Virus record (IMG/VR): IMGVR_UViG_3300025410_000672
Span: 57,738-77,737 of that record
Direction: 5' to 3' (one strand)
Source: an uncultured virus (IMG/VR IMGVR_UViG_3300025410_000672)
Taxonomy: Duplodnaviria > Heunggongvirae > Uroviricota > Caudoviricetes
DNA length: 20,000 nt
Both the position numbers and the translations under genes were made by a program. Positions 1-16,162 of the stretch are shown in pieces; within the stretch, counting starts at the first letter, position 1, and each line of letters opens with the position of its first letter. Under the pieces are notes generated by a model that worked only from the letters and a program-made list of their open reading frames with translations, was not told the origin of the DNA and did not search any database.

Positions 1-2
1 AT

Positions 3-170
3 GAAGTTCGTCGCTTTATTCAAGAAGGATATGAAACAGCAAAGAAGATCTTAACTGAGAAGAGAGATCAACTTGACAAACTTGCAGAAGCTCTTATAAT
101 GTATGAGACACTAAGCGGTCAAGAGATAATCGATCTTTTGGACGGTAAGGAACCAGTCAGGGAGTCTTAA
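3..170 (+). CDS. ftsH: ATP-dependent zinc metalloprotease FtsH, C-terminal fragment (gene begins upstream of the window)
   Basis: Manual frame-3 translation EVRRFIQEGYETAKKILTEKRDQLDKLAEALIMYETLSGQEIIDLLDGKEPVRES* matches the peptidase M41 C-terminal pattern (..EVRR..Y..A..IL......L..LA..L..YETLSG.EI..LL.G). Its TAA overlaps the next ATG (TAATG). Not in the ORF track. Confidence 0.85.
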   Translation, partial: EVRRFIQEGYETAKKILTEKRDQLDKLAEALIMYETLSGQEIIDLLDGKEPVRES

Positions 171-664
171 TGACTATCTTTGTAATTTCGGACACACACT
201 TTGGACATGCTAACATTCTGAAATTTACAAGACAGGATGGCAGTCCAATGCGTGTCTTTGAATCAGTGGAGCATATGAATGAAACAATGGTTGAAAACTG
301 GAATCGAGTTGTCACCGACAGCGATATTGTCTATCATCTTGGCGATGTTTATTTTGGGAAGGGTCACGAGATACTTGGTCGGCTAAAAGGTCGTAAGCGT
401 CTTATCCTCGGAAATCATGATAACGGCAAGTGCCAGAATTTACACAAACATTTCCAGAAGATTATGATGTGGAGAATGTTTCCAGAATTTAATTGTCTGC
501 TAACTCATGTACCTGTTCATGCAAGTGTACTTTATAAGACAAAGTATAACCTACACGGACATGTACATCATAATAGTCTTCCTGAAGAAAACTACATTAA
601 TTGTTGTGTAGAACCCTTAAACTTTACTCCTACTCCTTTGGAATCTTTAATTCCAAAGGAATAA
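170..664 (+). CDS. Calcineurin-like metallophosphoesterase
   Basis: Motifs DTHFGH, HLGDV, GNHD, H, HGHVH in canonical order. Confidence 0.92.
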   Translation: MTIFVISDTHFGHANILKFTRQDGSPMRVFESVEHMNETMVENWNRVVTDSDIVYHLGDVYFGKGHEILGRLKGRKRLILGNHDNGKCQNLHKHFQKIMMWRMFPEFNCLLTHVPVHASVLYKTKYNLHGHVHHNSLPEENYINCCVEPLNFTPTPLESLIPKE

Positions 665-671
665 ATACCAT

Positions 672-797
672 ATGAAAAGATTAATTTTAGTTACATCAAT
701 ATTATCGTTCGGAGCAGGTCTTATTGTTGGGTGGAATCTTCTACCTCAACCACAATGGCTATTTGATGCTTACGGATATTTGATATTATTCAAATAA
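672..797 (+). CDS. Small membrane protein (41 aa)
   Basis: Manual translation MKRLILVTSILSFGAGLIVGWNLLPQPQWLFDAYGYLILFK*. Fills the gap between neighbours; TAAATA 4 nt upstream. Confidence 0.6.
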   Translation: MKRLILVTSILSFGAGLIVGWNLLPQPQWLFDAYGYLILFK

Positions 798-805
798 ATA
801 AAAGT

Positions 806-1249
806 ATGAAAAAACTACTACTTTTATTCTTTCTATTCACTTCTTCTGCATTTGCTGTAGACTTACCTATTTTACCAAATCCCAAACTTACTCCTGGTGA
901 TATAGATCATAATGCTTCAACTAAAGAATTTTGTACTCCTGGGTATACTCGTAAAGTTAGAAATGTTCCACTGTCTGTAAAAAGACAGGTTTTTGTTCTT
1001 TATGGAATTGATCCAACATCTAGCGATTTCGAAGTAGATCATCTTATTAGTTTAGAATTAGGCGGATCTAATGATATTAAGAATTTATGGCCACAAAGTT
1101 ATGATACACAACCATGGAATGCTTATAAGAAAGATGGTTTAGAGCATAGATTACATGCTTTAGTTTGTAATGGCAAAATAGACGTAAGAGAAGCACAAAA
1201 AGCCATTGCATCTGATTGGATTTCAGCGTATAACAAATATATGAATTAA
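806..1249 (+). CDS. Signal-peptide-bearing HNH (His-Me finger) nuclease-like protein
   Basis: N-terminal MKKLLLLFFLFTSSAFA signal peptide; EVDHLISLELGGSNDIKNLWPQ HNH-like core; two Cys. Confidence 0.75.
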   Translation: MKKLLLLFFLFTSSAFAVDLPILPNPKLTPGDIDHNASTKEFCTPGYTRKVRNVPLSVKRQVFVLYGIDPTSSDFEVDHLISLELGGSNDIKNLWPQSYDTQPWNAYKKDGLEHRLHALVCNGKIDVREAQKAIASDWISAYNKYMN

Positions 1250-1255
1250 TAGAAA

Positions 1256-1332
1256 GGCTTGGTATCTCAGTTGGTTAGAGTGCTGCCCTGTCACGGCAGA
1301 GGTCGCCGGTTCGAGCCCGGTCCAGGTCGCCA
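1256..1332 (+). tRNA. tRNA-Asp (GTC)
   Basis: Cloverleaf: acceptor GGCTTGG/CCAGGTC, anticodon arm CTGCC-CTGTCAC-GGCAG, T-loop TTCGAGC, G73, encoded CCA. Confidence 0.95.
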
Positions 1333-1366
1333 GTTTGTTAAATAGTTGTAGTTAACGGAGACTACA

Positions 1367-1642
1367 ATGAAAAAGAAACTTCTTACACTATTAACGGTGC
1401 TTGGACTTACTATTGCTACAGTTGCTCCTGCTAATGCTTGGTACCGTGGATATTATGGCGGATATTATGGCGGATGGGGTTACGGTGGTGCAATGGCTGG
1501 GGCTGCTATTGCAGGTGCTCTTGCTGGGGCTGCTATTGCTAATTCATATGCTTATCCATATGGAGGATATTATTATGTACCACAATATTATTATCCTGCG
1601 CCAACATACTACTATTACCCAAATTATTACTATGGATGGTAA
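1367..1642 (+). CDS. Secreted Gly/Tyr-rich low-complexity protein
   Basis: GGAG SD; signal peptide ending APANA; GYYG repeats, a GAAIAGALAGAAIA segment and a Tyr/Pro-rich tail, resembling small secreted proteins of Rhizobiales. Confidence 0.75.
   Translation: MKKKLLTLLTVLGLTIATVAPANAWYRGYYGGYYGGWGYGGAMAGAAIAGALAGAAIANSYAYPYGGYYYVPQYYYPAPTYYYYPNYYYGW
1448..1471 (+). repeat. Tandem 12-bp duplication GGATATTATGGC x2 (encodes GYYG GYYG)
   Basis: Read directly from the sequence. Confidence 0.8.
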
Positions 1643-2077
1643 ATGTTACACATAATAAATGATATTTCAGATCCTTTATTAGAATTAGTAAAGGATGATC
1701 CTGTTCGATCAGATATCTATCCTATAGAAAGAATTATGGGTAATAAAGAAATTATGGTTTTGTTGGATCCTATTAGTAAAGAACCACAATCGGTAATTTG
1801 TGTATCTTATCAAGATCATATACCTGCAGATATAAGAGATTTAATATCTTCTGATTCTCCTATATTTGCTGTATTCTATACTATCTGGAGTTACAAAACA
1901 GGTTCAGGAAGAAGATTGCTCTTTAAGGCAAAAGATTATATAAAAGAACATAGACCAGAAATTAAACGTTTCATAACTCTTAGTCCAAAAACATTTACTG
2001 CTAGTAGATTTCATACTGACAATGGTGCTAAAATATTAAGAGTTAACACAGACAGCGTCAATTATGAATACCAATAA
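1643..2077 (+). CDS. Hypothetical phage protein, possible GNAT-like fold
   Basis: 144-aa ORF abutting the previous stop. The FYTIWS..GSGRRLL...A.RFH..NGA pattern is reminiscent of GNAT motifs A/B (inference). Confidence 0.6.
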   Translation: MLHIINDISDPLLELVKDDPVRSDIYPIERIMGNKEIMVLLDPISKEPQSVICVSYQDHIPADIRDLISSDSPIFAVFYTIWSYKTGSGRRLLFKAKDYIKEHRPEIKRFITLSPKTFTASRFHTDNGAKILRVNTDSVNYEYQ

Positions 2078-2078
2078 C

Positions 2079-2168
2079 GGAGAGGTGGCCGAGTGGTTTA
2101 AGGCAGCGGTCTTGAAAACCGCCGTAGGTGAAAGCCTACCGTGAGTTCGAATCTCACCCTCTCCGCCA
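2079..2168 (+). tRNA. tRNA-Ser (TGA)
   Basis: GGAGAGG/CCTCTCC acceptor, anticodon arm GCGGT-CTTGAAA-ACCGC, long variable arm GTAGG-TGAAAG-CCTAC, G73, CCA. Confidence 0.96.
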
Positions 2169-2198
2169 TACGATATATAATATATTAGGAGAATTAAT

Positions 2199-2369
2199 AT
2201 GCGTATAATTTTATCTTTACTAACTATTATGGCTTTAGGAAATTCCGCTTTTGCTGGTCCTATTCCAAGAGTTGATCATTCATCGAAATCAAAATCAACA
2301 CAAGAATGGAAACCACCACTAGAGATTCAGAAAAAAGAAAGTATTGTTGTTGCTCCTACAAAGAAATAA
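2199..2369 (+). CDS. Small secreted protein (56 aa)
   Basis: AGGAG SD; manual translation MRIILSLLTIMALGNSAFAGPIPRVDHSSKSK...APTKK*, with an AFA signal peptidase site. Confidence 0.7.
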   Translation: MRIILSLLTIMALGNSAFAGPIPRVDHSSKSKSTQEWKPPLEIQKKESIVVAPTKK

Positions 2370-2370
2370 T

Positions 2371-2712
2371 ATGAGATATATTTTTCTTGCAATGTTTGCA
2401 GGAGTAATAATCTATAGTATAGTCAACACTAAACTAAGCGTTGACTATCAATGTTATAGTAAAGAAGGCCTTAATAAATTAATCGACGAGAAAAAATATC
2501 AAACTCTAATTCAAACTTTTACCGATGATGGTAAAATAAATGAAACAATGTTTACACCTTACTATGATAAAGAAACAATTATTGTTGAATATAAAAAACC
2601 AAATACAGAAAAATATTGTATTAAATCAATAACACACGGTACAATGGTAAATGAATATTCTGTTGAAATGCTTTATGAGGCTCTTGAAAAATATAAAGGA
2701 AAACGAGCATGA
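2371..2712 (+). CDS. Hypothetical protein with N-terminal membrane anchor
   Basis: Start moved to ATG 2371, just after the upstream stop; hydrophobic MRYIFLAMFAGVIIYSIV. Confidence 0.7.
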   Translation: MRYIFLAMFAGVIIYSIVNTKLSVDYQCYSKEGLNKLIDEKKYQTLIQTFTDDGKINETMFTPYYDKETIIVEYKKPNTEKYCIKSITHGTMVNEYSVEMLYEALEKYKGKRA

Positions 2713-2915
2713 GATACATAATTCTTTTATCACTATTTCTAGCAGGATGTAATTCGTTAGCCCCAGTTAACGCTGGATTAGATATTGTCGACGTTGCGGG
2801 CAAATTAGGTCTTGACGCAGATACTAATGGTGTCTATTATAAACATAGAGGACCAATAGAACATGTATGTGAATATAAGGTTAAACAGAATTTTACAGCA
2901 TTTCGTCCTTGCTAA
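2709..2915 (+). CDS. Small lipoprotein
   Basis: Lipobox LAGC after a hydrophobic leader; ATGA overlap with the upstream gene. Confidence 0.7.
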   Translation: MRYIILLSLFLAGCNSLAPVNAGLDIVDVAGKLGLDADTNGVYYKHRGPIEHVCEYKVKQNFTAFRPC

Positions 2916-2929
2916 TAATGGAGATTTAA

Positions 2930-3070
2930 ATGTTTAATATTTCAGACGAAACTAAAGCAGAAGCAGTTGCACAGATGAAGGAAATTCTTGGACATGACAT
3001 TCCAGAAGAAAAACTACAAGAAGCATTTGATGCTGCTGTTAAAGTAGTTGCTAGAAGTTTTGGAATGTAA
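2930..3070 (+). CDS. Small hypothetical protein (46 aa)
   Basis: GGAG SD; MFNISDETKAEAVAQMKEILGHDIPEEKLQEAFDAAVKVVARSFGM*. Confidence 0.7.
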   Translation: MFNISDETKAEAVAQMKEILGHDIPEEKLQEAFDAAVKVVARSFGM

Positions 3071-3072
3071 TT

Positions 3073-3234
3073 ATGGATAAGTGGGACGAATTGAAACTAT
3101 TATTAGAGGCAGATTTGTCTCACACCGTCCATTATTCTCATGATAAAAATTATGAACATGGGCAATTATTACGTGTCAAGGAATGGATGGAGTATCTTGA
3201 GAAGAAAGAATTAACTAAAGAAAATTCATCATAA
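3073..3234 (+). CDS. Small hypothetical protein (53 aa)
   Basis: ATG 2 nt after the previous stop; MDKWDELKLLLEADLSHTVHYSHDKNYEHGQLLRVKEWMEYLEKKELTKENSS*. Confidence 0.55.
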   Translation: MDKWDELKLLLEADLSHTVHYSHDKNYEHGQLLRVKEWMEYLEKKELTKENSS

Positions 3235-3269
3235 TTTACGATAAATACTATCTTTGTTAGGAGTATAGT

Positions 3270-3440
3270 ATGAAAACATTCGTTATGGCCACACTTTTAA
3301 TGTGCCTAAATAGTGGCCCATGTGAACAAAAACAAGTTCAGATTGAAAGTAGAGCCTGCACAATAGGAACACTAGATGCAAAAGTTCCTATGAACGGTGA
3401 ATATGAAGATGCAAAAATTCATGTGAAGTGCCACAAATAA
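3270..3440 (+). CDS. Small 4-Cys protein (56 aa), paralog of 3511..3690
   Basis: AGGAG SD; MKTFVMATLLMCLNSGPCEQKQVQIESRACTIGTLDAKVPMNGEYEDAKIHVKCHK*. Confidence 0.75.
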   Translation: MKTFVMATLLMCLNSGPCEQKQVQIESRACTIGTLDAKVPMNGEYEDAKIHVKCHK

Positions 3441-3510
3441 CACTAAATATATTTGGCTTTTGCCAAAAATGATTGTAGTATACAATTATACACACACAAG
3501 GAGAGACACA

Positions 3511-3690
3511 ATGAAGACCCTAATCGCAGCCACTCTATACACATGTCTTAATATCAGCGGAACAAATGTTTGTCAATACAAAGATGTTCAGTTAGAAAAA
3601 GATACTTGTAAGACTGGTGTTATTGAACAGACCCTTCCAAGAGGTACTGAACTTACTAAGATTAAAGTCGCTACTATATGTAAGGGTTAA
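3511..3690 (+). CDS. Small 4-Cys protein (59 aa), paralog of 3270..3440
   Basis: AGGAG SD before ATG 3511; MKTLIAATLYTCLNISGTNVCQYKDVQLEKDTCKTG...ICKG. Confidence 0.75.
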   Translation: MKTLIAATLYTCLNISGTNVCQYKDVQLEKDTCKTGVIEQTLPRGTELTKIKVATICKG

Positions 3691-3692
3691 TA

Positions 3693-3920
3693 TTGATAAA
3701 ATATATTCCAATAATTTTGATTTGTCATGTTAGCGTTCCTTCGTATGACTGTAAATCAGAACATAAAAATGTAACAACTGCTATTGGGGAATTTCAGAAT
3801 ACCCCGATGGCTTGTTTAGTTGAGGGGCAAACTAGACTTGCGAGTCTAGCATTTGCTCCAAAACTAGGAGATCCTTACTATGCTAAAATTAAATGTGTTC
3901 CAAAGATGTTTATCGATTAA
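3693..3920 (+). CDS. Small 4-Cys protein with hydrophobic N-terminus
   Basis: TTG start just after the previous stop; IILIC..DC..PMACL.EGQ..LA..KIKC pattern. Confidence 0.65.
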   Translation: MIKYIPIILICHVSVPSYDCKSEHKNVTTAIGEFQNTPMACLVEGQTRLASLAFAPKLGDPYYAKIKCVPKMFID

Positions 3921-3930
3921 AGGACAAAAA

Positions 3931-4143
3931 ATGAACTTGTTTGAACTGTCGACTGGCGAAACTATAGTTGTAGAAAAAATTGAATCTATCACTAATGTTG
4001 ATCACAAAAATGGATATAAAGGTTCTTTATATGAATTTACCATCTTTATGGATTCTGGACGAACAATTCATGTATCTAACGAAGATAATAAACCACTCAT
4101 CAAAGAACAAGAAAAACTACTATACATAATCAAGAGAACTTGA
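3931..4143 (+). CDS. Hypothetical protein (70 aa)
   Basis: AAGGA SD before ATG 3931; start trimmed relative to the ORF track. Confidence 0.65.
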   Translation: MNLFELSTGETIVVEKIESITNVDHKNGYKGSLYEFTIFMDSGRTIHVSNEDNKPLIKEQEKLLYIIKRT

Positions 4144-4168
4144 CAAGTATCACTTAACCTGTTAAATT
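4140..4168 (+). promoter_or_regulatory. Sigma70-like promoter for tRNA-Leu/kdsC
   Basis: TTGACA-N17-TAAATT with an extended -10 TG, 8 nt upstream of the tRNA. Confidence 0.55.
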
Positions 4169-4176
4169 AATATCAT

Positions 4177-4261
4177 GCGCTTGTGGTGGAATTGGTAGAC
4201 ACGGCAGACTTAGAATCTGTTGCTTCACGGCGTGGGAGTTCAAGTCTCTCCAGGCGCACCA
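4177..4261 (+). tRNA. tRNA-Leu (TAG)
   Basis: GCGCTTG/CAGGCGC acceptor, anticodon arm GCAGA-CTTAGAA-TCTGT, long variable arm, A73, CCA. Confidence 0.95.
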
Positions 4262-4282
4262 AAATATTGAAGGTTTAATAAA

Positions 4283-4792
4283 ATGCCGTTCAAATCAAAA
4301 TTATCTAAATGTAAATTAGTTATTACCGATGTAGATGGGGTACTTACAGATGGTAGAATCTATTATACAGAGCATGGTGAAACAATGAAGGAGTTTCATG
4401 CTCGAGATGGTTTTGGTGTTATAATGTTACAAAAGATGGAAATTAAAACGGCAGTTATAAGTGGACTCGGTTCTGAGGCTTTACAAAAACGAGTTTCCGA
4501 TTTAGGTATTGAATATAGTTTTTATCATGTAAAAGATAAATCTGCGATATGTAAAACACTTATGGAAAATTTATCTCTTCATCCAAATGAGGTAATTTGT
4601 ATTGGTGATGAAATAATAGATCTTCCAATGTTTGAAGTTTGTGGAACATCTTTTGCTGTAAATGATGCTCCAATATACATAAAAGAAAAAGCCGAAAGAG
4701 TTCTTTTTTCGAATGGTGGAAGAGGAGCGTTTCGAGAAGTAGTAGATGAGATAGTAAAAGCAAAAGGGTTGCCTTTCGAACACTTTGTTTAA
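4283..4792 (+). CDS. kdsC: 3-deoxy-D-manno-octulosonate 8-phosphate phosphatase (HAD, KdsC/YrbI family)
   Basis: DVDGVLTDG, K.F..RDG.G, IGD..IDLP and GGRGAFREVVD motifs. Confidence 0.9.
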   Translation: MPFKSKLSKCKLVITDVDGVLTDGRIYYTEHGETMKEFHARDGFGVIMLQKMEIKTAVISGLGSEALQKRVSDLGIEYSFYHVKDKSAICKTLMENLSLHPNEVICIGDEIIDLPMFEVCGTSFAVNDAPIYIKEKAERVLFSNGGRGAFREVVDEIVKAKGLPFEHFV

Positions 4793-4803
4793 GGGACCTT
4801 TTG

Positions 4804-4879
4804 GATCCCTTAGCTCAGTAGGTAGAGCACTCGACTTTTAATCGAGTTGTCCTGGGTTCGAATCCCAGAGGGATCACCA
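4804..4879 (+). tRNA. tRNA-Lys (TTT)
   Basis: GATCCCT/AGGGATC acceptor, anticodon arm CTCGA-CTTTTAA-TCGAG, TTCGAAT T-loop, CCA. Confidence 0.96.
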
Positions 4880-4882
4880 TTT

Positions 4883-4908
4883 TGGGGTATCGTCTAATGG
4901 TAGGACAG
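4883..4908 (+). pseudogene. Truncated 5' fragment of a tRNA-Gln-like gene (acceptor 5' strand plus D-arm only)
   Basis: TGGGGTA-TC-GTCTAATGGTAGGAC-AG: U1-GGGG start typical of bacterial tRNA-Gln and a complete D-arm (GTC/GAC, conserved GG). It lies 3 nt after the tRNA-Lys CCA and breaks off at the anticodon stem. Confidence 0.8.
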
Positions 4909-4916
4909 TATAAATA
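4909..4916 (+). promoter_or_regulatory. T4-type late promoter TATAAATA driving the HNH gene
   Basis: Exact T4 gp55 consensus, 4 nt before ATG 4921. Confidence 0.7.
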
Positions 4917-4920
4917 CTAT

Positions 4921-5460
4921 ATGTTATCCAAAAATATTGATGAAAATTTAATTAAAGAATTATTAGATAGCGGAAAGACTAATAAAGAGATTTCTTTTAT
5001 TCTAGATATTTCGGCACCAACTGTTACATATTGGAGAAAGAAACTTAAAAAAGGATTATCAATAAAAAGATACAATTGGAAAGAAATACAAGAAGCACAC
5101 AATAATGGATCTTCTTATTCAAATTTAAGAAAAGAATTTGGTGTAACTAAACGGTCAATCGAAATGGCTAAGAAGAGGGGAGATTTTAGTACAAGAAAAA
5201 TTCCTTGTATGGATCCGGAACAAGCAAAATTAAGAAAAAGAAATAGAAGAGAAGCATGGATGAGATATCATAGCCGAAAGAAATATCAGACTCCCGCCGA
5301 CGAAGATATAAAAAAACTACAAGAATTTTATGCTAACTGTCCACCTGGATACGAAGTCGATCATATTATACCAATTTCTAAGGGAGGATTACATTCAATA
5401 TCTAATTTACAATATTTAACAAAATCTGAAAATCGTGCTAAAAGTAATAAAATAATTTAA
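4921..5460 (+). CDS. Free-standing HNH homing endonuclease with N-terminal HTH domain(s)
   Basis: HTH GKTNKEISFILDISAPTVTYWRKK; a second HTH-like segment; C-terminal YEVDHIIPISKGGLHSISNLQYLTKSENRAKSNK. True start is taken as ATG 4921 because the track's 4882 start reads through the tRNA remnant. Confidence 0.88.
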   Translation: MLSKNIDENLIKELLDSGKTNKEISFILDISAPTVTYWRKKLKKGLSIKRYNWKEIQEAHNNGSSYSNLRKEFGVTKRSIEMAKKRGDFSTRKIPCMDPEQAKLRKRNRREAWMRYHSRKKYQTPADEDIKKLQEFYANCPPGYEVDHIIPISKGGLHSISNLQYLTKSENRAKSNKII

Positions 5461-5535
5461 TGGGGAGTGGTGCAATGGTAGTCACGTCGGACTTTGACTC
5501 CGAAAATGATCGTTCGAGTCGATCCTCCCCAGCCA
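5461..5535 (+). tRNA. tRNA-Gln (TTG)
   Basis: TGGGGAG/CTCCCCA acceptor, anticodon arm TCGGA-CTTTGAC-TCCGA, T arm GATCG-TTCGAGT-CGATC, G73, CCA. Confidence 0.93.
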
Positions 5536-5537
5536 AA

Positions 5538-5545
5538 TATAAATA
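5538..5545 (+). promoter_or_regulatory. Late promoter TATAAATA upstream of tRNA-Gly
   Basis: Exact consensus 6 nt before the tRNA 5' end. Confidence 0.65.
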
Positions 5546-5551
5546 CCTCAT

Positions 5552-5650
5552 GCGGGTGTAACTCAGAGGTAGAGTTCTTGCTTGCCTGAAGACATTAAGG
5601 TGTCTTGAATAAGCAAGATGTCGAGGGTTCGAATCCCTTCGCCCGCTCCA
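5552..5650 (+). tRNA. tRNA-Gly (GCC) with a 24-nt intron-like insertion (5587-5610) in the anticodon loop
   Basis: GCGGGTG/CGCCCGC acceptor with U73 (Gly identity), D arm ACTC/GAGT, anticodon stem CTTGC/GCAAG, T arm GAGGG-TTCGAAT-CCCTT, CCA. Removing 5587-5610 gives a canonical TTGCCAA loop and a 75-nt tRNA. Confidence 0.88.
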
Positions 5651-5661
5651 AAATCTCCAGG

Positions 5662-5689
5662 TTGACATATCTATAATAGACTGTATAGT
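5662..5689 (+). promoter_or_regulatory. Sigma70-like promoter
   Basis: TTGACA-N16-TATAGT in the intergenic gap. Confidence 0.6.
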
Positions 5690-5734
5690 TATAATTGTAA
5701 GGTGAGTGAAAGACTTACTATTATGGAGATTGAG

Positions 5735-7090
5735 ATGAGCAAGTCTAAAGACATAACGAAGACTCCGTTTGACCCTAGTGAAGGTTGGAAAAGTCGCAAA
5801 GTGCCTTTGGTTCAGGTTGCTAGAAATATTAATAAAAGATTAAAAATTAAAAAGCCAAATACTTCTTTTAATTATAAAGATGTGTTAAAATTTGATTGGG
5901 TACCTGTTAAGAAATGTATTCTTAATTATGACCGGCAGAGATATCCAGAGCCAACTCACATTGAAAAATTGTTGATTAAATGGAATATTATTTGTGCTAC
6001 CCCTTTACAGGCTAGATATAGTAAAGAAGAAGATTTGTATTATATTGCAGACGGGCAACAACACGGTATTGGTTGGGTTTTGCAATATGGTGAAGATAGT
6101 CTTGTTCCAGTTTGTTATGTTGAGAGTGAAGATGAAAATATTGAATCTATTCAACTTCTTGCTCTCAATACTGATTCTGAACCTATGGCAAAGTATTTTA
6201 TCCATAAGCAGAAATGTATAATGGGAGATGCTGAGTCTATTGCTCTCGAGAATACAGTCGTTAATGCCGGATGTTCAACTGGATATAACAAGAGGGCGCC
6301 TGGCGTTATTACTCTTATCAATGACTTACTGATTGCTCAAAAGGATTATGGATTAGAAGATCTAGGAAAAGTTCTTTCTTTTATGAGGAGACATTTTCCT
6401 ACTGAAAAAATTCATACTGCTAATATGTTAGGGTTTCTTAAAGTTAAAGAACTTCTTACACTCGAACAGAAGTATAGTGATACACTGTTTGAGGATATCT
6501 TTAATGCATCTACTGATTACTTCGATGCAGGTGATGCCTTACATAACAATATTAAAAGAGAATTTGAAATTTTATATCCAACAAATTACAGAGGCATGGG
6601 AGTTAGAGAAAAAGTTGCTAGTGGAATTATTAGTATCTATGAAAAAATCGAAGGGAAAGAACTTTGTTCAAAACCCTTTAATGTAGATATGCCTTATAAT
6701 AAAAATATACCTAACTACGATCCTAGCACTTATCATACTTGGAAATTATATCGTACCGTTTGTAAAACTGAGGACTTCCGTCCAGTTTGGGCTCACAAAA
6801 ATGCAGATAAATGGGGGGTAGAATACAATGACTTTCTTCCTCTTTGTCACGATACTTGTTCTTGCTGTGGTAGTGAACTTGACTATGGTTTAGGGAAAAA
6901 TAATAATAATAAGTTAGATGAAAATACTCCTTCAACTGATCATCGTATTCCTCGTAGTAAGGGAGGAACAAATGATGTAACTAATCTTCAGGTTATATGT
7001 ATGAAATGTAACACATTAAAAAGTAATTCTACTCCTGATGATATTCCACGATACAAGAAGATTATCGAGATGCACGAGAGTGTCAACTAA
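5735..7090 (+). CDS. ParB/Srx-like (DGQHR-type) domain fused to a C-terminal Zn-binding HNH endonuclease
   Basis: N-terminal RQR...YYIADGQQH motif; C-terminal CSCCG...STDHRIPRSKGGTNDVTNLQVICMKCNTLK. GGAG SD favours ATG 5735. Confidence 0.75.
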   Translation: MSKSKDITKTPFDPSEGWKSRKVPLVQVARNINKRLKIKKPNTSFNYKDVLKFDWVPVKKCILNYDRQRYPEPTHIEKLLIKWNIICATPLQARYSKEEDLYYIADGQQHGIGWVLQYGEDSLVPVCYVESEDENIESIQLLALNTDSEPMAKYFIHKQKCIMGDAESIALENTVVNAGCSTGYNKRAPGVITLINDLLIAQKDYGLEDLGKVLSFMRRHFPTEKIHTANMLGFLKVKELLTLEQKYSDTLFEDIFNASTDYFDAGDALHNNIKREFEILYPTNYRGMGVREKVASGIISIYEKIEGKELCSKPFNVDMPYNKNIPNYDPSTYHTWKLYRTVCKTEDFRPVWAHKNADKWGVEYNDFLPLCHDTCSCCGSELDYGLGKNNNNKLDENTPSTDHRIPRSKGGTNDVTNLQVICMKCNTLKSNSTPDDIPRYKKIIEMHESVN

Positions 7091-7147
7091 AAATGTGTTA
7101 AATCTGCAACACCGTTAATAAAGATTAACAATATGTGAAAAAACACA

Positions 7148-7176
7148 TTGACGTTAACCATTATAACCGCTAAAGT
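7148..7176 (+). promoter_or_regulatory. Sigma70-like promoter of the porin gene
   Basis: TTGACG-N17-TAAAGT, with a GCTA -10 context as in alphaproteobacterial RpoD promoters. Confidence 0.5.
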
Positions 7177-7204
7177 AGAAAATGTAACAAAGAGGAGAAG
7201 TTAT

Positions 7205-7993
7205 ATGAAAAAGACAGTTACTACTTTGCTTGCTTCGGCAGCATTAATTAGCGCAGCTCAGGCAGCCGATCTTCCAAGCAGGAAGGCACCTGTTGCTCCG
7301 CCTCCACCAGTTTTTACTTGGACTGGTGCTTATGTAGGTGCTAATGTCGGCGGTGGATGGAAGTCCAACGGCAATGGCAACGTTTATGCTTTTAATCCAA
7401 ATACATGGCAGAATGTTCTTTGGTCACGCAACGGCAATGGTAATGCTGGTGTTGTTGGAGGCATTCAGGCTGGTTATAACTACCAGATCGGTTCGATGTT
7501 TGTTGTTGGTGCTGAAACTGACTTTCAAGGCTCAACAATCAGCGGCGGTTCAAATAGTGCTTATAACGTAGCAGCCGTTAACGCAGTTTACCCAGGTTGG
7601 GTTGCTGGATATACAGGCGGTAACAACCTTAATTGGTTTGGTACTGTTCGTGGTAGAGTTGGTGTTGTTCCGCTAATGCCTACTTTACTTGTTTATGGTA
7701 CAGGTGGTTTTGCTTACGGCAACGTTTCAAGCAATGGTACATATGGTTCACAGAATGCTACACAGACGGGCTGGACAGCCGGCGGCGGCGTCGAGTGGGC
7801 TTTTGCTCCTGCTTGGTCCGTTAAGGCAGAATACCTCTACACAGATATTAGCGGTGGCAATCAGAACAAATTGTTTAACAGTCCTGCTTCTTTAAACAAT
7901 GTTAATAACAGCACAAAGTTCAATACAGTACGTGCTGGTGTTAACTATCACTTTAATGCAAGTGATGTTCTTCCAGTACTTGCTAAGTACTGA
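7205..7993 (+). CDS. Outer-membrane beta-barrel protein, Omp25/Omp31/RopB family
   Basis: GAGGAG SD; signal peptide then ADLPSRKAP..PPPVFTWTG.YVG.NVG; WFGTVRGRVG, LLVYGTGGFAYG, GWTAGGGVEWAF, SVKAEYLY, VRAGVNYHF...PVLAKY. Confidence 0.92.
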   Translation: MKKTVTTLLASAALISAAQAADLPSRKAPVAPPPPVFTWTGAYVGANVGGGWKSNGNGNVYAFNPNTWQNVLWSRNGNGNAGVVGGIQAGYNYQIGSMFVVGAETDFQGSTISGGSNSAYNVAAVNAVYPGWVAGYTGGNNLNWFGTVRGRVGVVPLMPTLLVYGTGGFAYGNVSSNGTYGSQNATQTGWTAGGGVEWAFAPAWSVKAEYLYTDISGGNQNKLFNSPASLNNVNNSTKFNTVRAGVNYHFNASDVLPVLAKY

Positions 7994-8001
7994 GTTAAAA
8001 A

Positions 8002-8023
8002 GAGTAGCCCTACGGGGCTACTC
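8002..8023. terminator. Stem-loop, probable intrinsic terminator
   Basis: GAGTAGCCC-TACG-GGGCTACTC: 9-bp stem with a C(UACG)G tetraloop right after the porin stop. A-tract on the 5' side; weak U-tract on the plus strand. Confidence 0.7.
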
Positions 8024-8038
8024 ACTTAAATATTCCGC

Positions 8039-8113
8039 GGGCGGTTGGCACAGTGGAAGCGCATCTGGTTTACACCCAGAGGGTCGGGAGTTCGAACCTC
8101 TCACCGCCCACCA
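8039..8113 (+). tRNA. tRNA-Val (TAC)
   Basis: GGGCGGT/ACCGCCC acceptor, anticodon arm TCTGG-TTTACAC-CCAGA, A73, CCA; TAAATA 6 nt upstream. Confidence 0.94.
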
Positions 8114-8127
8114 TAACTAAATACAAT

Positions 8128-8517
8128 ATGAGAGAATTAAGAAAACTTGCCCAACTAGTTGAGGCTAACAGCGGATCAATGCAACAAGATGTTGCTGCGG
8201 CTATTCCAGCACTCTATGTTGTACCATCTTTAACAAACGGAAATCCTTATTATCAATACAGAGTGGGATTGGCATTTGCTGCTGCTCGTGCTAACGAACA
8301 AGGATTAGTTCCCGAAGTAGATAAATCTAGTGTGTATGGAGAAAATATGGTTCTCGTGGCAGATACCGAAGAAGAACGAAGAACTCTCGAACTAGCATTT
8401 AAAATGATGGGTGTTACCGATGCTAAAATGATCACAACTTCTACTAGCGATGAGGCAAAAGATGTTTCTAAAGTTAGTCCGGTTGCTAAATTTGTTCCAA
8501 CTAAACGCCCTAGGTAA
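8128..8517 (+). CDS. Hypothetical late protein
   Basis: Start moved to ATG 8128 because the track start overlaps tRNA-Val; TAAATA 4 nt upstream. Confidence 0.7.
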   Translation: MRELRKLAQLVEANSGSMQQDVAAAIPALYVVPSLTNGNPYYQYRVGLAFAAARANEQGLVPEVDKSSVYGENMVLVADTEEERRTLELAFKMMGVTDAKMITTSTSDEAKDVSKVSPVAKFVPTKRPR

Positions 8518-8525
8518 ATAGGTTT

Positions 8526-9065
8526 ATGAACCTCAAAGATGAAGATTGTTTTTATCCCATAAACGGAGACACTTCAGTTGTTGAAAATTATTGTAAAAAT
8601 AATTTCAATAATTTTGATTTTGTATGTCCTAACGAAAATTTCAATGTTTGGAAATGTTATCATTTTAAATATGATGAGGTTAGAAAATTAATTAGTAGTG
8701 ATCCAACACTTTCAAAAATCGATCAAGTACTAGAAATTTCTCATTGTTTTGTTATGGAAATTTCTAAAAATTCTTGGGTTGGGTGGCATTTTGATTACCC
8801 TAGGAAGGGACCAGCATTAAACTTATTATTAACACCTGATGCAAGAAGTTTTTCTTTATTCACCGATACACTTTATGATATGTCAAATATTGTTGAATGT
8901 AAATATCAACCACATCAATACCTTTTATATAATACAGATTTAATTCATTCTATTGTAAACTTTGATCAACCAAGATATCTATTTTCTGCTCTCTTTAAAC
9001 GAGGAAAAGAAAATCTAGTTTGGCAAGAAGCTATAATGTTACTAGATAATATAAAATATGATTAA
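8526..9065 (+). CDS. 2OG-Fe(II) oxygenase/cupin-like protein (paralog 1)
   Basis: WHFD...ALN...YNTDLIHSIVN...RYLFS: HxD...H triad plus distal Arg. Confidence 0.72.
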   Translation: MNLKDEDCFYPINGDTSVVENYCKNNFNNFDFVCPNENFNVWKCYHFKYDEVRKLISSDPTLSKIDQVLEISHCFVMEISKNSWVGWHFDYPRKGPALNLLLTPDARSFSLFTDTLYDMSNIVECKYQPHQYLLYNTDLIHSIVNFDQPRYLFSALFKRGKENLVWQEAIMLLDNIKYD

Positions 9066-13109: not shown

Positions 13110-13586
13110 ATGGCAAAATACATCTCTACAAAAACTTATAGGCAAATAGGGCCAGTAGCATATAGACAATGGCGTGCCGATAGTCATTGTAATCTTATTC
13201 ACGGATACGCACTAAGTTTTCATTTTGAATTTGAGTGCGATACGCTAGATACTCGCAACTGGTGTATGGACTTTGGCGGTCTTAAACCACTAAAAGCATT
13301 GCTGGAGGATTGGTTTGACCATACGCTATTAGTTGCTGAAGATGACCCACAACGTGATGAACTATTGCGACTCGGTACGCTGGGACTTGCAAAAATCACT
13401 GAGGTATCTAAAACTGGATGTGAAGGTCTAGCGGACTTCCTCTACGAATATGTAAATACGATCTTTTTGCCGAACTACGGTGCTGAAGAAGCAAAACGTA
13501 TTTGGTGTTGTAAAGTAGAAGTGAGAGAGACTGATTCCAACATGGCTATGCGTGTTGGACATAGAGAGGACAAAGAATTTGATTGA
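13110..13586 (+). CDS. queD: 6-carboxy-5,6,7,8-tetrahydropterin synthase (QueD/PTPS family)
   Basis: CNLIHGY, MDFGGLK, FDHTLL, GCEGLA and VEVRET motifs; AGGAG SD. Confidence 0.9.
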   Translation: MAKYISTKTYRQIGPVAYRQWRADSHCNLIHGYALSFHFEFECDTLDTRNWCMDFGGLKPLKALLEDWFDHTLLVAEDDPQRDELLRLGTLGLAKITEVSKTGCEGLADFLYEYVNTIFLPNYGAEEAKRIWCCKVEVRETDSNMAMRVGHREDKEFD

Positions 13587-14394
13587 TATTCACAGTACTC
13601 TTGTAGATAATACATTACCATTTGTTCTTATAGCAGGTCCTTGTCAAATAGAAAGCAGAGATCATGCTCACTTCACCGCGGCTGCTATTAAAGAGATTTG
13701 TAAAGAATTAGATATTAAACTTATCTATAAGAGTAGTTATGATAAAGCGAATCGCAGTAGTATTAAAGGAAAAAGAGGAATTGGTATTGAAGCAGGATTA
13801 GAAATTCTTCTCGAGATTAAAAAAGAACATAATCTTCCTATTATAACCGATGTTCATGAAGTTTGGCAAGTTGATATGGTTAAACATGTTGTTGATGTTA
13901 TACAAATTCCTGCTTTTCTTTGCCGTCAAACAGATTTGTTAATAGCATGTGGTAATACAGGACTTCCTATCAATGTTAAAAAAGGACAATTCTTATCACC
14001 ATATGATATGAAAAATGTTGCTGATAAAATTGCCAGCACAGGTAATAACAAAATTATGCTATGTGAACGTGGAACTAGTTTTGGTTATAATAATCTTGTT
14101 GTAGATTTTCGTGGTATTGAAATTATGAAAGAAACAGGTTATCCTGTTATCTTTGATGCTACACACTCTGTTCAACATCCTGGAGCAAACGGCGAGAGTA
14201 GTGGTGGTGATCGTCGTATGGTTTGGCCACTAGCAAAAGCAGCATGTTCTTTAGGTATTTCTGGATTATTTATGGAGATGCACGAAGACCCCGATCGTGC
14301 TCCTAGCGACGGTGCTAATATGATACATATTAAAGATGCTAAACATATTTTAACAGACTTAAGAAAGTTAGATAGATTAGTAAAAAACAATTAA
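13579..14394 (+). CDS. kdsA: 3-deoxy-8-phosphooctulonate (KDO8P) synthase
   Basis: IAGPCQIES, KSSYDKANRSS, TDVHE, QIPAFLCRQTDL, NVKKGQFL, ERG.SFGYNNLVVD, DATHSVQ, SDG. Start codon uncertain (TTG 13579 or GTG-frame 13552). Confidence 0.96.
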   Translation: MIDIHSTLVDNTLPFVLIAGPCQIESRDHAHFTAAAIKEICKELDIKLIYKSSYDKANRSSIKGKRGIGIEAGLEILLEIKKEHNLPIITDVHEVWQVDMVKHVVDVIQIPAFLCRQTDLLIACGNTGLPINVKKGQFLSPYDMKNVADKIASTGNNKIMLCERGTSFGYNNLVVDFRGIEIMKETGYPVIFDATHSVQHPGANGESSGGDRRMVWPLAKAACSLGISGLFMEMHEDPDRAPSDGANMIHIKDAKHILTDLRKLDRLVKNN

Positions 14395-14402
14395 GAAAAA
14401 AT

Positions 14403-15101
14403 ATGGATCGAACTATAGCATGTCTAAAATGGGGGAACAAATATTCTCCTCATTACGTTAATGTATTGTATAATATGTGCAGACGTCACAACTCTGAATA
14501 TTTTAATTTTATTTGTTTTACTGATAATTCAGATGGATTAGATAAAGAAATTATTATTAAATCTTTGCCAAATTCATCATTGCACGGATGGTGGTATAAA
14601 CCATTTGTTTTTTGTAAGGAAAATAATATAAAAGGAACTGTTTTATTTTTAGATCTAGATGTCATTGTCTATGATAATATTGATAAACTTTGGAATTATA
14701 GAAAAAATGATTTTTTAATTATTAGAGATTTTACAAAACATATGAATCCAGCATGGGACAAATTTAACAGTAGTGTTTTTAGATTTGAGGCAGATAATTG
14801 TTATTGGATATGGGAAAAATTTTATAAAGAAAAAACACAAATTATGTCTAAGATGCACGGAGACCAAGATTATCTATATTCTATATTAAAGAATAATGCA
14901 TTTCATTGGCCAGATAACTGGATACAAAGTTATAAATGGGAAATGAGAGATAAACATGATATAATATTAATAGATGGAAAACGTAATTTTAAAGATATTA
15001 AAGATCCTAAATTAACAGAAGAATGCTCTATTGCTGTATTTCACGGTGAACCCAATCCTCACGAAGTTAAAGATCCTTGGGTTATTAAAAATTGGAAGTA
15101 G
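14403..15101 (+). CDS. GT-A fold glycosyltransferase (GT8-like)
   Basis: CLKWG.KY, FLDLDV (DxD), FNSSVF, GDQDY and VFHGEPNP motifs. Confidence 0.85.
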   Translation: MDRTIACLKWGNKYSPHYVNVLYNMCRRHNSEYFNFICFTDNSDGLDKEIIIKSLPNSSLHGWWYKPFVFCKENNIKGTVLFLDLDVIVYDNIDKLWNYRKNDFLIIRDFTKHMNPAWDKFNSSVFRFEADNCYWIWEKFYKEKTQIMSKMHGDQDYLYSILKNNAFHWPDNWIQSYKWEMRDKHDIILIDGKRNFKDIKDPKLTEECSIAVFHGEPNPHEVKDPWVIKNWK

Positions 15102-15130
15102 TTGACTATATCCATAAAGACAACTATACT
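15102..15130 (+). promoter_or_regulatory. Sigma70-like promoter of the UV endonuclease gene
   Basis: TTGACT-N17-TATACT, 6 nt before ATG 15137. Confidence 0.55.
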
Positions 15131-15136
15131 ATAAAT

Positions 15137-16162
15137 ATGACTAAGAAGATAGGCTTTTGTTGCAAATACGTAACTCACGATTCTAAAAAAGGCATTGTTT
15201 CAATTCCCGAATTGAATACCTCTACTACTACTGTAGCATGGCTCAAAAGGCAAACTCAACAGGTTGCAGAACAAAAACTTTGGGATCTTATGGTCCATAA
15301 TATTGAATCAATTAAATTGTTGGTTCAAAAAGTAGGAATGTTAAATGAACAATTACGTATGGTTAGGCTATCCAGTGATATTCTTCCTGTATACACTGAA
15401 TCTAACTTTTCTTATTTTTGGCGCCAAAACGATATTAAATCTTATGCAGAACGAGCTTTTGCCGACGTGGGTATGCTTGCTCGTAAACTGGACGTCAGGC
15501 TTAGTTTTCATCCTGGCCAGTTCTGCGTATTGGCTAGTGATTCAGAAGATATTGTAAAACGTTCAATAGAAGAATTTGAGTACCATGCAGATATGGCTCG
15601 TTGGATGGGCTATGGTAAATATTTCCACGATGAAGGTTTTAAAATTAATGTTCATATTGCTGGCAGGCGTGGTGCCGCTGGCGTTATTGCTGCTCTTCCC
15701 CTTCTTAGTAGTGAAGCTCGCAACCTTATTACCATAGAAAATGAGGAAATGGCTCACGGCCTAGATGATGTTTTAGAATTAGAGAAGTATTGTGCTATTG
15801 TTCTCGACATACACCACCACTGGGTTAAGACTGGCGAGTATATTGATCCTAACGATAATAGAGTTAAACGTGTCATTGACAGTTGGCGCGGTACTCGTCC
15901 AGTTCTTCATTACTCCATTAGTAGAGAAGAACACTTACACGAAACAGTACTTCGTAATAACGAAATGTTATTAGATCTTAATGAACTATTAGAAACAGGA
16001 CATAAGAAACAAAAACTCCGAGCACATTCTGATTATTATTGGAATAGCGCAGTTAACGAATGGGCGTTAGGGTTCTGGGATAATTTTGATATTTGTTGCG
16101 AAAGTAAGGCTAAGAATTTAGCAAGTTTTGCATTGTTTGAACAATCTAAAAATTTATGTTGA
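15137..16162 (+). CDS. uvsE: UV DNA damage endonuclease (UvdE/UvsE)
   Basis: KIGFCC, RLSSDILP, RLSFHPGQF.VLAS, INVH, TIENEE, VLDIHHH, HYS, AHSDY, ESKAKNLA. Confidence 0.93.
   Translation: MTKKIGFCCKYVTHDSKKGIVSIPELNTSTTTVAWLKRQTQQVAEQKLWDLMVHNIESIKLLVQKVGMLNEQLRMVRLSSDILPVYTESNFSYFWRQNDIKSYAERAFADVGMLARKLDVRLSFHPGQFCVLASDSEDIVKRSIEEFEYHADMARWMGYGKYFHDEGFKINVHIAGRRGAAGVIAALPLLSSEARNLITIENEEMAHGLDDVLELEKYCAIVLDIHHHWVKTGEYIDPNDNRVKRVIDSWRGTRPVLHYSISREEHLHETVLRNNEMLLDLNELLETGHKKQKLRAHSDYYWNSAVNEWALGFWDNFDICCESKAKNLASFALFEQSKNLC

Follow-up and report, generated by a model that had tools for sequence, protein, structure and literature searches.

Free-standing homing endonucleases are known from the tRNA gene clusters of phages, SegB of phage T4 being the closest described example. 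SegB is a GIY-YIG nuclease whose gene lies inside the tRNA array and whose 27-bp site contains the T-psi-C motif (stem-loop) of tRNA genes, so that tRNA genes themselves are targeted; according to passages of PMC2330249, it spreads its own gene together with neighbouring tRNA genes in co-infection and drives the inheritance of the T4 tRNA region. HNH genes are conserved beside tRNA clusters in mycobacteriophages and cyanobacterial L-arrays and have been proposed to spread these clusters or to diversify the tRNA repertoire (passages of PMC6409571 and PMC8421152). In T4-like phages, the genes of MobE and further free-standing HNH homing endonucleases lie within conserved genes or between them and spread through the repair of breaks (PMC2790892 and PMC2988022). 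Here, we describe a locus in the last 20 kb (the window) of the 77.7-kb IMG/VR record IMGVR_UViG_3300025410_000672, from an uncultured virus. Nucleotides 4909–5535 hold a late-promoter-like box, the gene of a predicted free-standing endonuclease with tandem helix-turn-helix (HTH) units and an HNH domain, and a complete tRNA-Gln(UUG) gene; these probably constitute a compact homing-type cassette that replaced a resident tRNA-Gln gene from about position 27 of the tRNA.

The locus is like that of SegB in placing a free-standing nuclease gene inside a phage tRNA array and is like those of MobE and its T4-like counterparts in nuclease superfamily. Unlike SegB, the window protein is an HNH protein with a tandem-HTH head and is not a member of the Seg family; the break lies at the boundary of the D-arm and the anticodon stem, and a tRNA of the same isotype appears to ride with the nuclease. 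A term search of the accessible text of PMC2330249 did not return this stub-plus-replacement layout. MobE adjoins nrd genes and not tRNA genes (PMC2790892 and PMC2988022). The accessible parts of the mycobacteriophage and L-array reports (PMC6409571, PMC8421152) describe neighbourhood only, without a broken target, a fixed breakpoint or a carried replacement tRNA. In the full-text literature searched, whose coverage ends short of subscription journals and supplements, the combination of a 5' stub, an HNH gene and a same-isotype tRNA is not described. The general kind is known from SegB; without a counterpart in this literature are a nuclease lineage with a fixed point of breakage in a tRNA gene, a riding replacement of the same isotype and a reusable head apparently aimed at one tRNA gene.

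Integrase-type islands and prophages offer another comparison. A recombinase inserts such an element in a tRNA gene, rebuilds a working tRNA and duplicates the 3' end at the far border. The cassette is similar in interrupting a tRNA gene as a mobile element and leaving a working tRNA and a partial duplicate, and is dissimilar in its size (0.63 kb, with a single HNH gene), in having no recombinase, in leaving a 5' fragment and in supplying a whole different tRNA. It also differs from a group I intron with a homing endonuclease, with no ribozyme match, a break at position 26/27 and a downstream tRNA that is complete. An earlier note on this DNA had argued against both an intron and an integrase-type att duplication, and both are excluded (no Rfam intron, no recombinase and a duplicated 5' rather than 3' end).

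The 77.7-kb record has a G+C content of 35%, a CheckV completeness of ∼22% and 19 tRNAs called by ARAGORN, with all of its long genes on the + strand. Gene content indicates a large T4-like phage (a baseplate protein like T4 gp9/10, a DNA methylase, UvdE and enzymes resembling KdsA and KdsC), and freshwater metagenome runs contain the window DNA. The locus is arranged as follows:

4804–4879, + strand: tRNA-Lys(UUU), called by ARAGORN (Rfam tRNA, 76.6 bits); resident upstream neighbour, outside the insert
4883–4908, + strand: tRNA-Gln 5' stub, 26 nt, TGGGGTATCGTCTAATGGTAGGACAG; 26/26 against the starts of intact tRNA-Gln(UUG) genes
4909–4916, + strand: TATAAATA box, left edge of the putative insert, 4 nt before the ATG at 4921
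4921–5460, + strand: predicted HTH-HTH-HNH endonuclease gene, 179 amino acids (aa), ATG at 4921 and TAA at 5458–5460
5461–5535, + strand: intact tRNA-Gln(UUG), read as cassette-carried; called by ARAGORN (Rfam, 58.1 bits against a gathering score of 29)
5544–5550, + strand: possible 7-nt relic (TACCTCA) of the 3' acceptor strand of the resident tRNA-Gln, tentative, from its pairing with the stub

The positions that the earlier note had given for the tRNA-Lys, stub, box, open reading frame (ORF) and abutting tRNA-Gln all proved exact when compared with the sequence, ARAGORN and Rfam. A 3-nt spacer (TTT) separates the tRNA-Lys from the stub, and the spacer between the nuclease TAA and the tRNA-Gln is 0 nt. 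Contigs from public runs span both junctions with no differences (4764–4928, 4832–5229 and 5207–5543), and these runs may share the sampling campaign of the source. A 107-kb sister contig is not independent because it is identical to the window over 8507 nt.

The stub covers the acceptor 5' strand, the D-arm and position 26 and extends one base into the anticodon stem. Intact tRNA-Gln(UUG) genes of five other IMG/VR contigs contain exact copies of its first 25 nt; three of them, at loci L227, L230 and L231 (L numbers denote our locus list), are identical to the stub over its full 26 nt and terminate in the complementary acceptor strand. When the record outside the called tRNAs was compared with the first and last 24 nt of 574 pooled phage tRNAs, allowing up to four mismatches, the stub was the sole match. 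Because it is exact in intact tRNA-Gln genes elsewhere and unique in the record, the stub is, on sequence grounds, a true tRNA-Gln gene fragment beyond chance. Its D-arm is the commonest type in phage tRNA-Gln and tRNA-Glu genes, with matches at at least 120 IMG/VR loci. The 3' two-thirds of the ancestral tRNA-Gln was not found elsewhere in the window with up to three mismatches. As a side observation, a consensus tRNA-Gln/Glu D-arm runs into non-tRNA sequence at about position 900 of L078, L090, L034, L041, L048, L053, L096 and L122; L078 and L090 are apparently tRNA-like genes with long inserts after the D-arm, and others of these contigs look like nuclease-free stubs within the DNA examined.

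Full-length homologs of the HTH-HNH gene were found at five loci of four lineages: the window (with its identical sister), L003, L240, L148 and L239. Protein identity to the window is 67% for L003 (a 328-kb record), 58% for L239 and 51% for L148; L240 is a relative of L003, ∼89% identical in both flanks, and the two form one lineage. The earlier note had proposed that a 5' tRNA stub upstream and a same-isotype tRNA downstream should recur among homologs, and this is the case at all five loci, where a tRNA-Gln-like 5' stub is followed by an (A)TAAATA box 4–6 nt before the start, the HNH gene and an intact tRNA-Gln(UUG) that begins −2 to 24 nt past the HNH stop. The three stubs that were tested against the tRNA pool, with intact neighbouring tRNAs excluded, have tRNA-Gln as their best match, above shuffled sequences. 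In the window, L003, L240 and L239 the stub ends at ..GGAC plus 0–3 nt, corresponding to tRNA position 25–27, and the L148 stub ends ∼4 bases later than the others. A sixth locus, L076 (893–1590), has its stub end at the same position 25–27 and the order tRNA-Gln stub, TATAAT box, intact tRNA-Gln(UUG) and an HNH gene of a different type; the ATG of this gene overlaps the CCA of the tRNA and its HTH head is homologous to that of the window protein (34% over 85 aa, E = 8e-7). The breakpoint is conserved at five of the six Gln-linked loci. At all five full-length loci the presumed target is disrupted in the carrier at the 5' edge of the nuclease gene, a mark of free-standing homing endonucleases.

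The DNA common to the window and L003 loci in a blastn comparison is confined to window 4890–5536 (68.9% over 672 nt). The flanks (±1.5 kb) are unrelated except for one tRNA-Leu match, and the homology stops exactly at the tRNA 3' end. The same module therefore stands in unrelated genomic contexts, which is the pattern expected of horizontal spread. A single copy per genome was found in all five records searched. Between L003 and L240, the HNH genes have a ratio of nonsynonymous to synonymous substitution rates (dN/dS) of 0.11 (180 codons, 15 amino-acid differences, dS of 0.32), indicating that the gene is under purifying selection. Their stubs differ at 9/27 positions, near the neutral expectation, and yet each still resembles a real tRNA-Gln 5' end.

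The wider nuclease lineage is associated with tRNA genes. IMG/VR was scanned with an alignment of five relatives, which yielded 80 loci; 30 of these (E ≤ 2e-24) form a close clade with the conserved motif ..ANCPxGYEVDHIxPxSKGG... ARAGORN places a tRNA within 25 nt of the ORF at 25 of the 30 close-clade loci (22 of 27 distinct proteins) and at 6 of the 50 distant HNH loci, so the association between the nuclease and tRNA genes on which the earlier note depended is present. The five close-clade exceptions are L152, which reads into uncalled antiparallel tRNA-like sequence, L153 and L167, which are cut by the locus end, and L169 and L174, which have uncalled tRNA-like ends identified by eye only. 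Layouts differ by sublineage: the gene stands parallel to a tRNA-Gln that follows it, or antiparallel to a tRNA-Trp, -Pro, -Arg, -Cys or -Met whose CCA end the ORF end touches or overlaps, or immediately behind an intact tRNA-Met. The nuclease-domain tree groups loci with the tRNA label (14 changes against a shuffled mean of 22.9, none of 200 shuffles being as low). A search of 50,697 GenBank phage records returned no close-clade member; the matches are to the C-terminal ∼60 aa with less than 60% identity, and none covers 80% of the query. In the sublineage that follows an intact tRNA-Met, L164 (∼1184–1765) has an 11-nt copy of the 3' end of that tRNA (..GGCCCACCA) after the HNH stop, a mirror image of the 5' stub layout. 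An attempt to assign stub isotypes in the antiparallel relatives (Trp, Pro, Arg, Cys) was set aside as mostly undecidable; Trp was the best match at two of seven Trp-linked loci and three stubs scored no better than shuffled sequences.

The acceptor stem of the carried tRNA-Gln pairs 7/7 with its own 3' strand and not with the stub. The gene was found elsewhere only in the identical sister contig. It retains U1-A72, G2-C71, G3-C70, G73 and the UUG anticodon, which we take to be the identity elements of Escherichia coli glutaminyl-tRNA synthetase, and because these are kept the carried tRNA is probably functional. The best evidence that a tRNA belongs to the insert comes from L148, where a T-arm, an acceptor strand and GCCA directly follow the intact tRNA-Gln as a 3' relic. 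The relic acceptor pairs 7/7 with the acceptor of the 5' stub (equalled by 9 of 3000 random windows), and its nearest tRNAs in the pool, with two mismatches in 19 nt, are three tRNA-Gln(UUG) and one tRNA-Lys. The resident tRNA gene of L148 thus appears to be split into halves around the box, HNH gene and tRNA-Gln; as the resident 3' relic lies beyond the intact tRNA-Gln, the tRNA would be inside the insert. In L239, a shorter relic lies two bases past the tRNA, consisting of 7 nt that pair 6/7 with the stub and then GCCA. The window TACCTCA pairs 7/7 (including one G-U) with TGGGGTA of the stub, a result equalled by 43 of 3000 random 60-nt windows in a post-hoc test. Furthermore, the tRNA-Gln genes of L239 and L076 are mutual nearest neighbours (83%) among 94 tRNA-Gln genes and are the only DNA common to the two loci.

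The 179-aa product matches the HNH families PF01844 (28.9 bits against a cutoff of 21.4) and PF13395 (26.9 against 22) and a GerE/LuxR-type HTH family (26.4 against 23.5) in Pfam, and in PHROGs it matches phrog_1035 'endonuclease VII' (1.2e-14) and many HNH families. GIY-YIG was not among its Pfam matches at E ≤ 0.01. An AlphaFold2 model from an alignment of 27 relatives, with a mean predicted local distance difference test score (pLDDT) of 88.2, contains two three-helix units and a ββα end:

aa 8–41 and 53–86 (nt 4942–5043 and 5077–5178), + strand: predicted HTH units
aa 99–123: predicted long helix
aa 144–175 (nt 5350–5445), + strand: predicted HNH ββα element (strands 144–148 and 163–167, helix 168–175)

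Residues Asp147, His148, His158, Asn162 and Asn171 are invariant in alignment A1. The best PDB chains found by Foldseek for the C-terminus are HNH domains (Cas8-HNH, the Gme nicking endonuclease and McrA; probability up to 1.0, E = 0.04), and those for the N-terminus are HTH domains of the LuxR/NarL and transposase types; no match to the PDB reached E ≤ 0.001. Profile and predicted fold together place the product in the HNH (ββα-metal) superfamily as a predicted endonuclease. Position 4921 was taken as the start because an in-frame ATG in the stub D-loop is not conserved (L003 has a stop there). A leaderless mRNA or a missing Shine–Dalgarno sequence was considered as a special trait and rejected, many ORFs of the window having no clear one and AGGA lying 14 nt before the ATG.

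The HTH head, of a YxWKxIQ type, is found fused to three nuclease domains: the HNH of the clade, a second HNH type (L076, L241 and L247) and DUF559 (L242–L244). Eight of the 11 loci with this head adjoin a tRNA-Gln, two adjoin a tRNA-Lys and one has no adjacent tRNA. L247 is a bacterial genome, an Eremiobacteria metagenome-assembled genome, and a profile search of genome contigs gave a single distant bacterial locus only. The DUF559 (PD-(D/E)XK-type) fusions lie at L243 1501–2079, L244 1492–2244 and L242 1477–2439; that of L243 stops 2 nt short of an antiparallel tRNA-Lys and that of L244 lies between tRNA-Lys(UUU) and tRNA-Lys(CUU).

ATAAATA is present within 14 nt before the ATG at 17 of the 30 close-clade loci compared with 4 of the 50 distant loci, and an identical TATAAATACTATATG is common to the window and L003. 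TATAAATA resembles the T4 late-promoter consensus. A genome-wide excess of TATAAATA was not found in the record (10 on the + strand against ∼11 expected). With this conserved box as a putative late-type promoter, the cassette may be self-promoted, as the earlier note held.

From this architecture we infer a cleavage site, a form of immunity, a promoter and a direction of transfer. During co-infection, the HTH head would bind the D-arm DNA of cassette-free tRNA-Gln genes and the HNH domain would nick or cut near the boundary of the D-arm and anticodon stem (position 26/27). With a co-infecting genome that has the cassette as template, repair would copy the box, nuclease gene and tRNA into the break. 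The resident 5' part would survive as the dead 26-nt stub, perhaps with 7 nt of the 3' end (5544–5550), and the resident 3' part would be replaced or would collapse by recombination with the similar 3' part of the carried tRNA. The carrier genome would stay uncut because the site is split in its stub and its carried tRNA differs in sequence. The cost of insertion would be low because the carried tRNA would maintain the tRNA-Gln supply of the phage. If the model is right, the target must reach past the break into the anticodon stem; the D-arm alone cannot be the whole target, because L239 keeps an intact tRNA-Gln(CUG) with a near-stub 5' part. The term 'toxin–antidote drive', used in the earlier note, may serve as an analogy. 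A tentative extension, which we regard as rather doubtful, is that the cassette is a portable tRNA gene drive that overwrites and replaces, with the 5' stub as its left homology arm and the 3' part of the carried tRNA as its right, and could enter any genome with a similar tRNA-Gln. Such a drive would explain the same breakpoint in unrelated phages, the freshly copied look of the stubs, the usual loss of resident 3' parts and the recombination of a tRNA-Gln-specialized HTH head with three nuclease domains (DUF559 and two HNH types) in both phages and bacteria. In addition, the carried tRNA may be a variant that evades host tRNA-cutting defences.

Several results weigh against the homing-cassette interpretation. 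The empty allele with a complete tRNA-Gln that the earlier note had called for was not found in IMG/VR, GenBank phages or public-run contigs. In IMG/VR, the neighbouring KdsC-like protein led to the identical sister contig only, and the exact 3' ends of the tRNA-Lys (window) and tRNA-Trp (L003) led to known records only, with no cassette-free relative; GenBank phages gave tRNA-sized matches only to window 4200–5800. Contigs from 4 of 23 public freshwater runs show the cassette-bearing form only, and a joint in run contigs that skips from 4883 to 5556 was discarded for its 20-nt side and seven foreign letters. The L239 stub differs by one base in its first 24 nt from the intact tRNA-Gln(CUG) of the same locus, and the L240 nuclease gene has a GTG start and a one-base frameshift from an extra A in a poly-A run. 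The Gln-linked nucleases were also tried as one clade, a grouping that was not significant (three changes, with 50 of 500 shuffles as low, for four Gln rows on the nuclease-domain tree). The D-arm of the carried tRNA is not unusual but belongs to a class found in other tRNA-Gln genes, and the earlier idea that a 'recoded', deviant D-arm confers resistance was dropped, as of eight unselected phage tRNA-Gln genes only one comes within a single mismatch of the 'target' consensus for the D-arm. Finally, identity between the carried tRNAs of the window and L003 is 69%, which does not exceed that of randomly paired phage tRNA-Gln genes, and a 3' relic is not seen in L003, L240 or L076. Identity gives no support to a constant tRNA that co-travels in all cassettes. 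Because the carried tRNAs diverge like unrelated ones, co-travel is shown only by the geometry of L148, the gene order of L076 and the nearest-neighbour tRNAs of L239 and L076.

This divergence is what would be expected if the insert were the box and HNH gene only, two ancestral tRNA-Gln genes having stood in tandem, of which the first lost its 3' two-thirds and the second (5461–5535) was never mobile. That arrays can hold more than one tRNA-Gln (CUG and UUG in L239, two in L054) and that no clear 3' relic follows the tRNA in the window, L003 or L240 would fit such a history, which we nevertheless judge improbable: the 3' relic of L148 lies beyond the intact tRNA-Gln, the tRNA of L076 sits between the stub and the HNH gene, the HNH stop is within a few nucleotides of the tRNA end in independent contexts and the window–L003 homology ends with the tRNA. 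The split halves of L148, the layout shared by five of five loci and the block common to the window and L003 make the insertion of promoter, nuclease and tRNA into a resident tRNA-Gln, as the earlier note had it, the best reading. The purifying selection on the nuclease gene and its single copy in each of five records could instead reflect a module kept for phage benefit, through tRNA-gene amplification or exchange or a tRNA-Gln that may resist a host tRNA-cutting defence, with homing secondary. SegB offers a precedent, since passages of PMC13096335 describe how it promotes the tandem amplification of a tRNA-Tyr and segB unit, which lets T6 escape the Septu defence, and its frequent linkage to tRNA genes. 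The window, however, has no sign of amplification, no tRNA-Gln defence target is known here and the stub and the split gene of L148 are marks of insertion, so that we give this account a slim chance.

Chance would account for the arrangement if the stub were what decay had left of an old, duplicated tRNA-Gln gene and the HNH gene simply occupied the gap. Although tRNA arrays are often rearranged and nuclease-free stubs do occur (L034, L041, L048 and L053), the stub is undecayed (26/26), the same breakpoint lies directly at the HNH start at five of six Gln-linked loci and the tie to tRNA genes holds across the clade (25/30), which makes coincidence very improbable. Least credible, to the point of being negligible, is an intron-like or split tRNA in which the stub is still used through splicing or trans-joining. 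The neighbouring tRNA-Gly-like gene at 5552–5651 does carry an insert; yet there is no Rfam intron or ribozyme in window 1–9000 (E ≤ 10) or in L003, L148, L239, L076 and L240 (gathering score), the stub acceptor strand and the 3' end of the downstream tRNA do not pair, that tRNA is complete in itself and the break at position 26/27 is outside the anticodon loop.

The surroundings of the cassette contain further features. The tRNA-Gly(GCC)-like gene at 5552–5651 was missed by ARAGORN (Rfam tRNA, 54.9 bits) and has 28 nt in the anticodon loop, where four would be expected, owing to a 24-nt hairpin insert after GCC; its RNA forms a cloverleaf in which the anticodon arm is long (z = −3.5). The gene starts 16 nt past the carried tRNA-Gln, with a second TATAAATA upstream (5538–5545), and among 247 loci it was found only in the window phage and the sister contig. 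Just downstream of the HNH–tRNA-Gln unit of L148, a tRNA-Asn(GUU)-like gene (2149–2268) has a ∼45-nt insert at position 26/27 ending in ..AAATAA, possibly left behind by a cassette since lost or else an intervening sequence of another kind. A second, larger HNH gene of 462 aa (window 5662–7090, HNH at aa 386–448) has no detected stub; it is preceded by a putative strong sigma-70-like promoter (TTGACA-16-TATAGT, 11/12, at 5662–5689), and its search in GenBank phages gave one weak homolog only. A 147-aa ORF at 806–1249 with a weak HNH match (E = 0.004) has ATAAATA 5 nt before its ATG and ends 6 nt before a tRNA-Asp (1256–1332); it is possibly a third such cassette, in which no stub could be detected. 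Four host-like genes were also annotated in the window:

4283–4792: KdsC-like HAD phosphatase
7148–7993: OmpA-like outer-membrane β-barrel protein
13552–14394: KdsA-like (DAHP_synth_1) enzyme
15092–16162: UvdE UV-endonuclease

The KdsA- and KdsC-like pair of the 3-deoxy-D-manno-octulosonic acid (KDO) pathway suggests tampering with the host lipopolysaccharide.

If the homing-cassette interpretation is correct, it would account for some of the rapid turnover of phage tRNA repertoires. The cassette would represent a natural cut-and-replace drive that targets a gene of essential type and costs its carrier little, and compact DNA-binding modules with predictable and highly conserved targets would become available.

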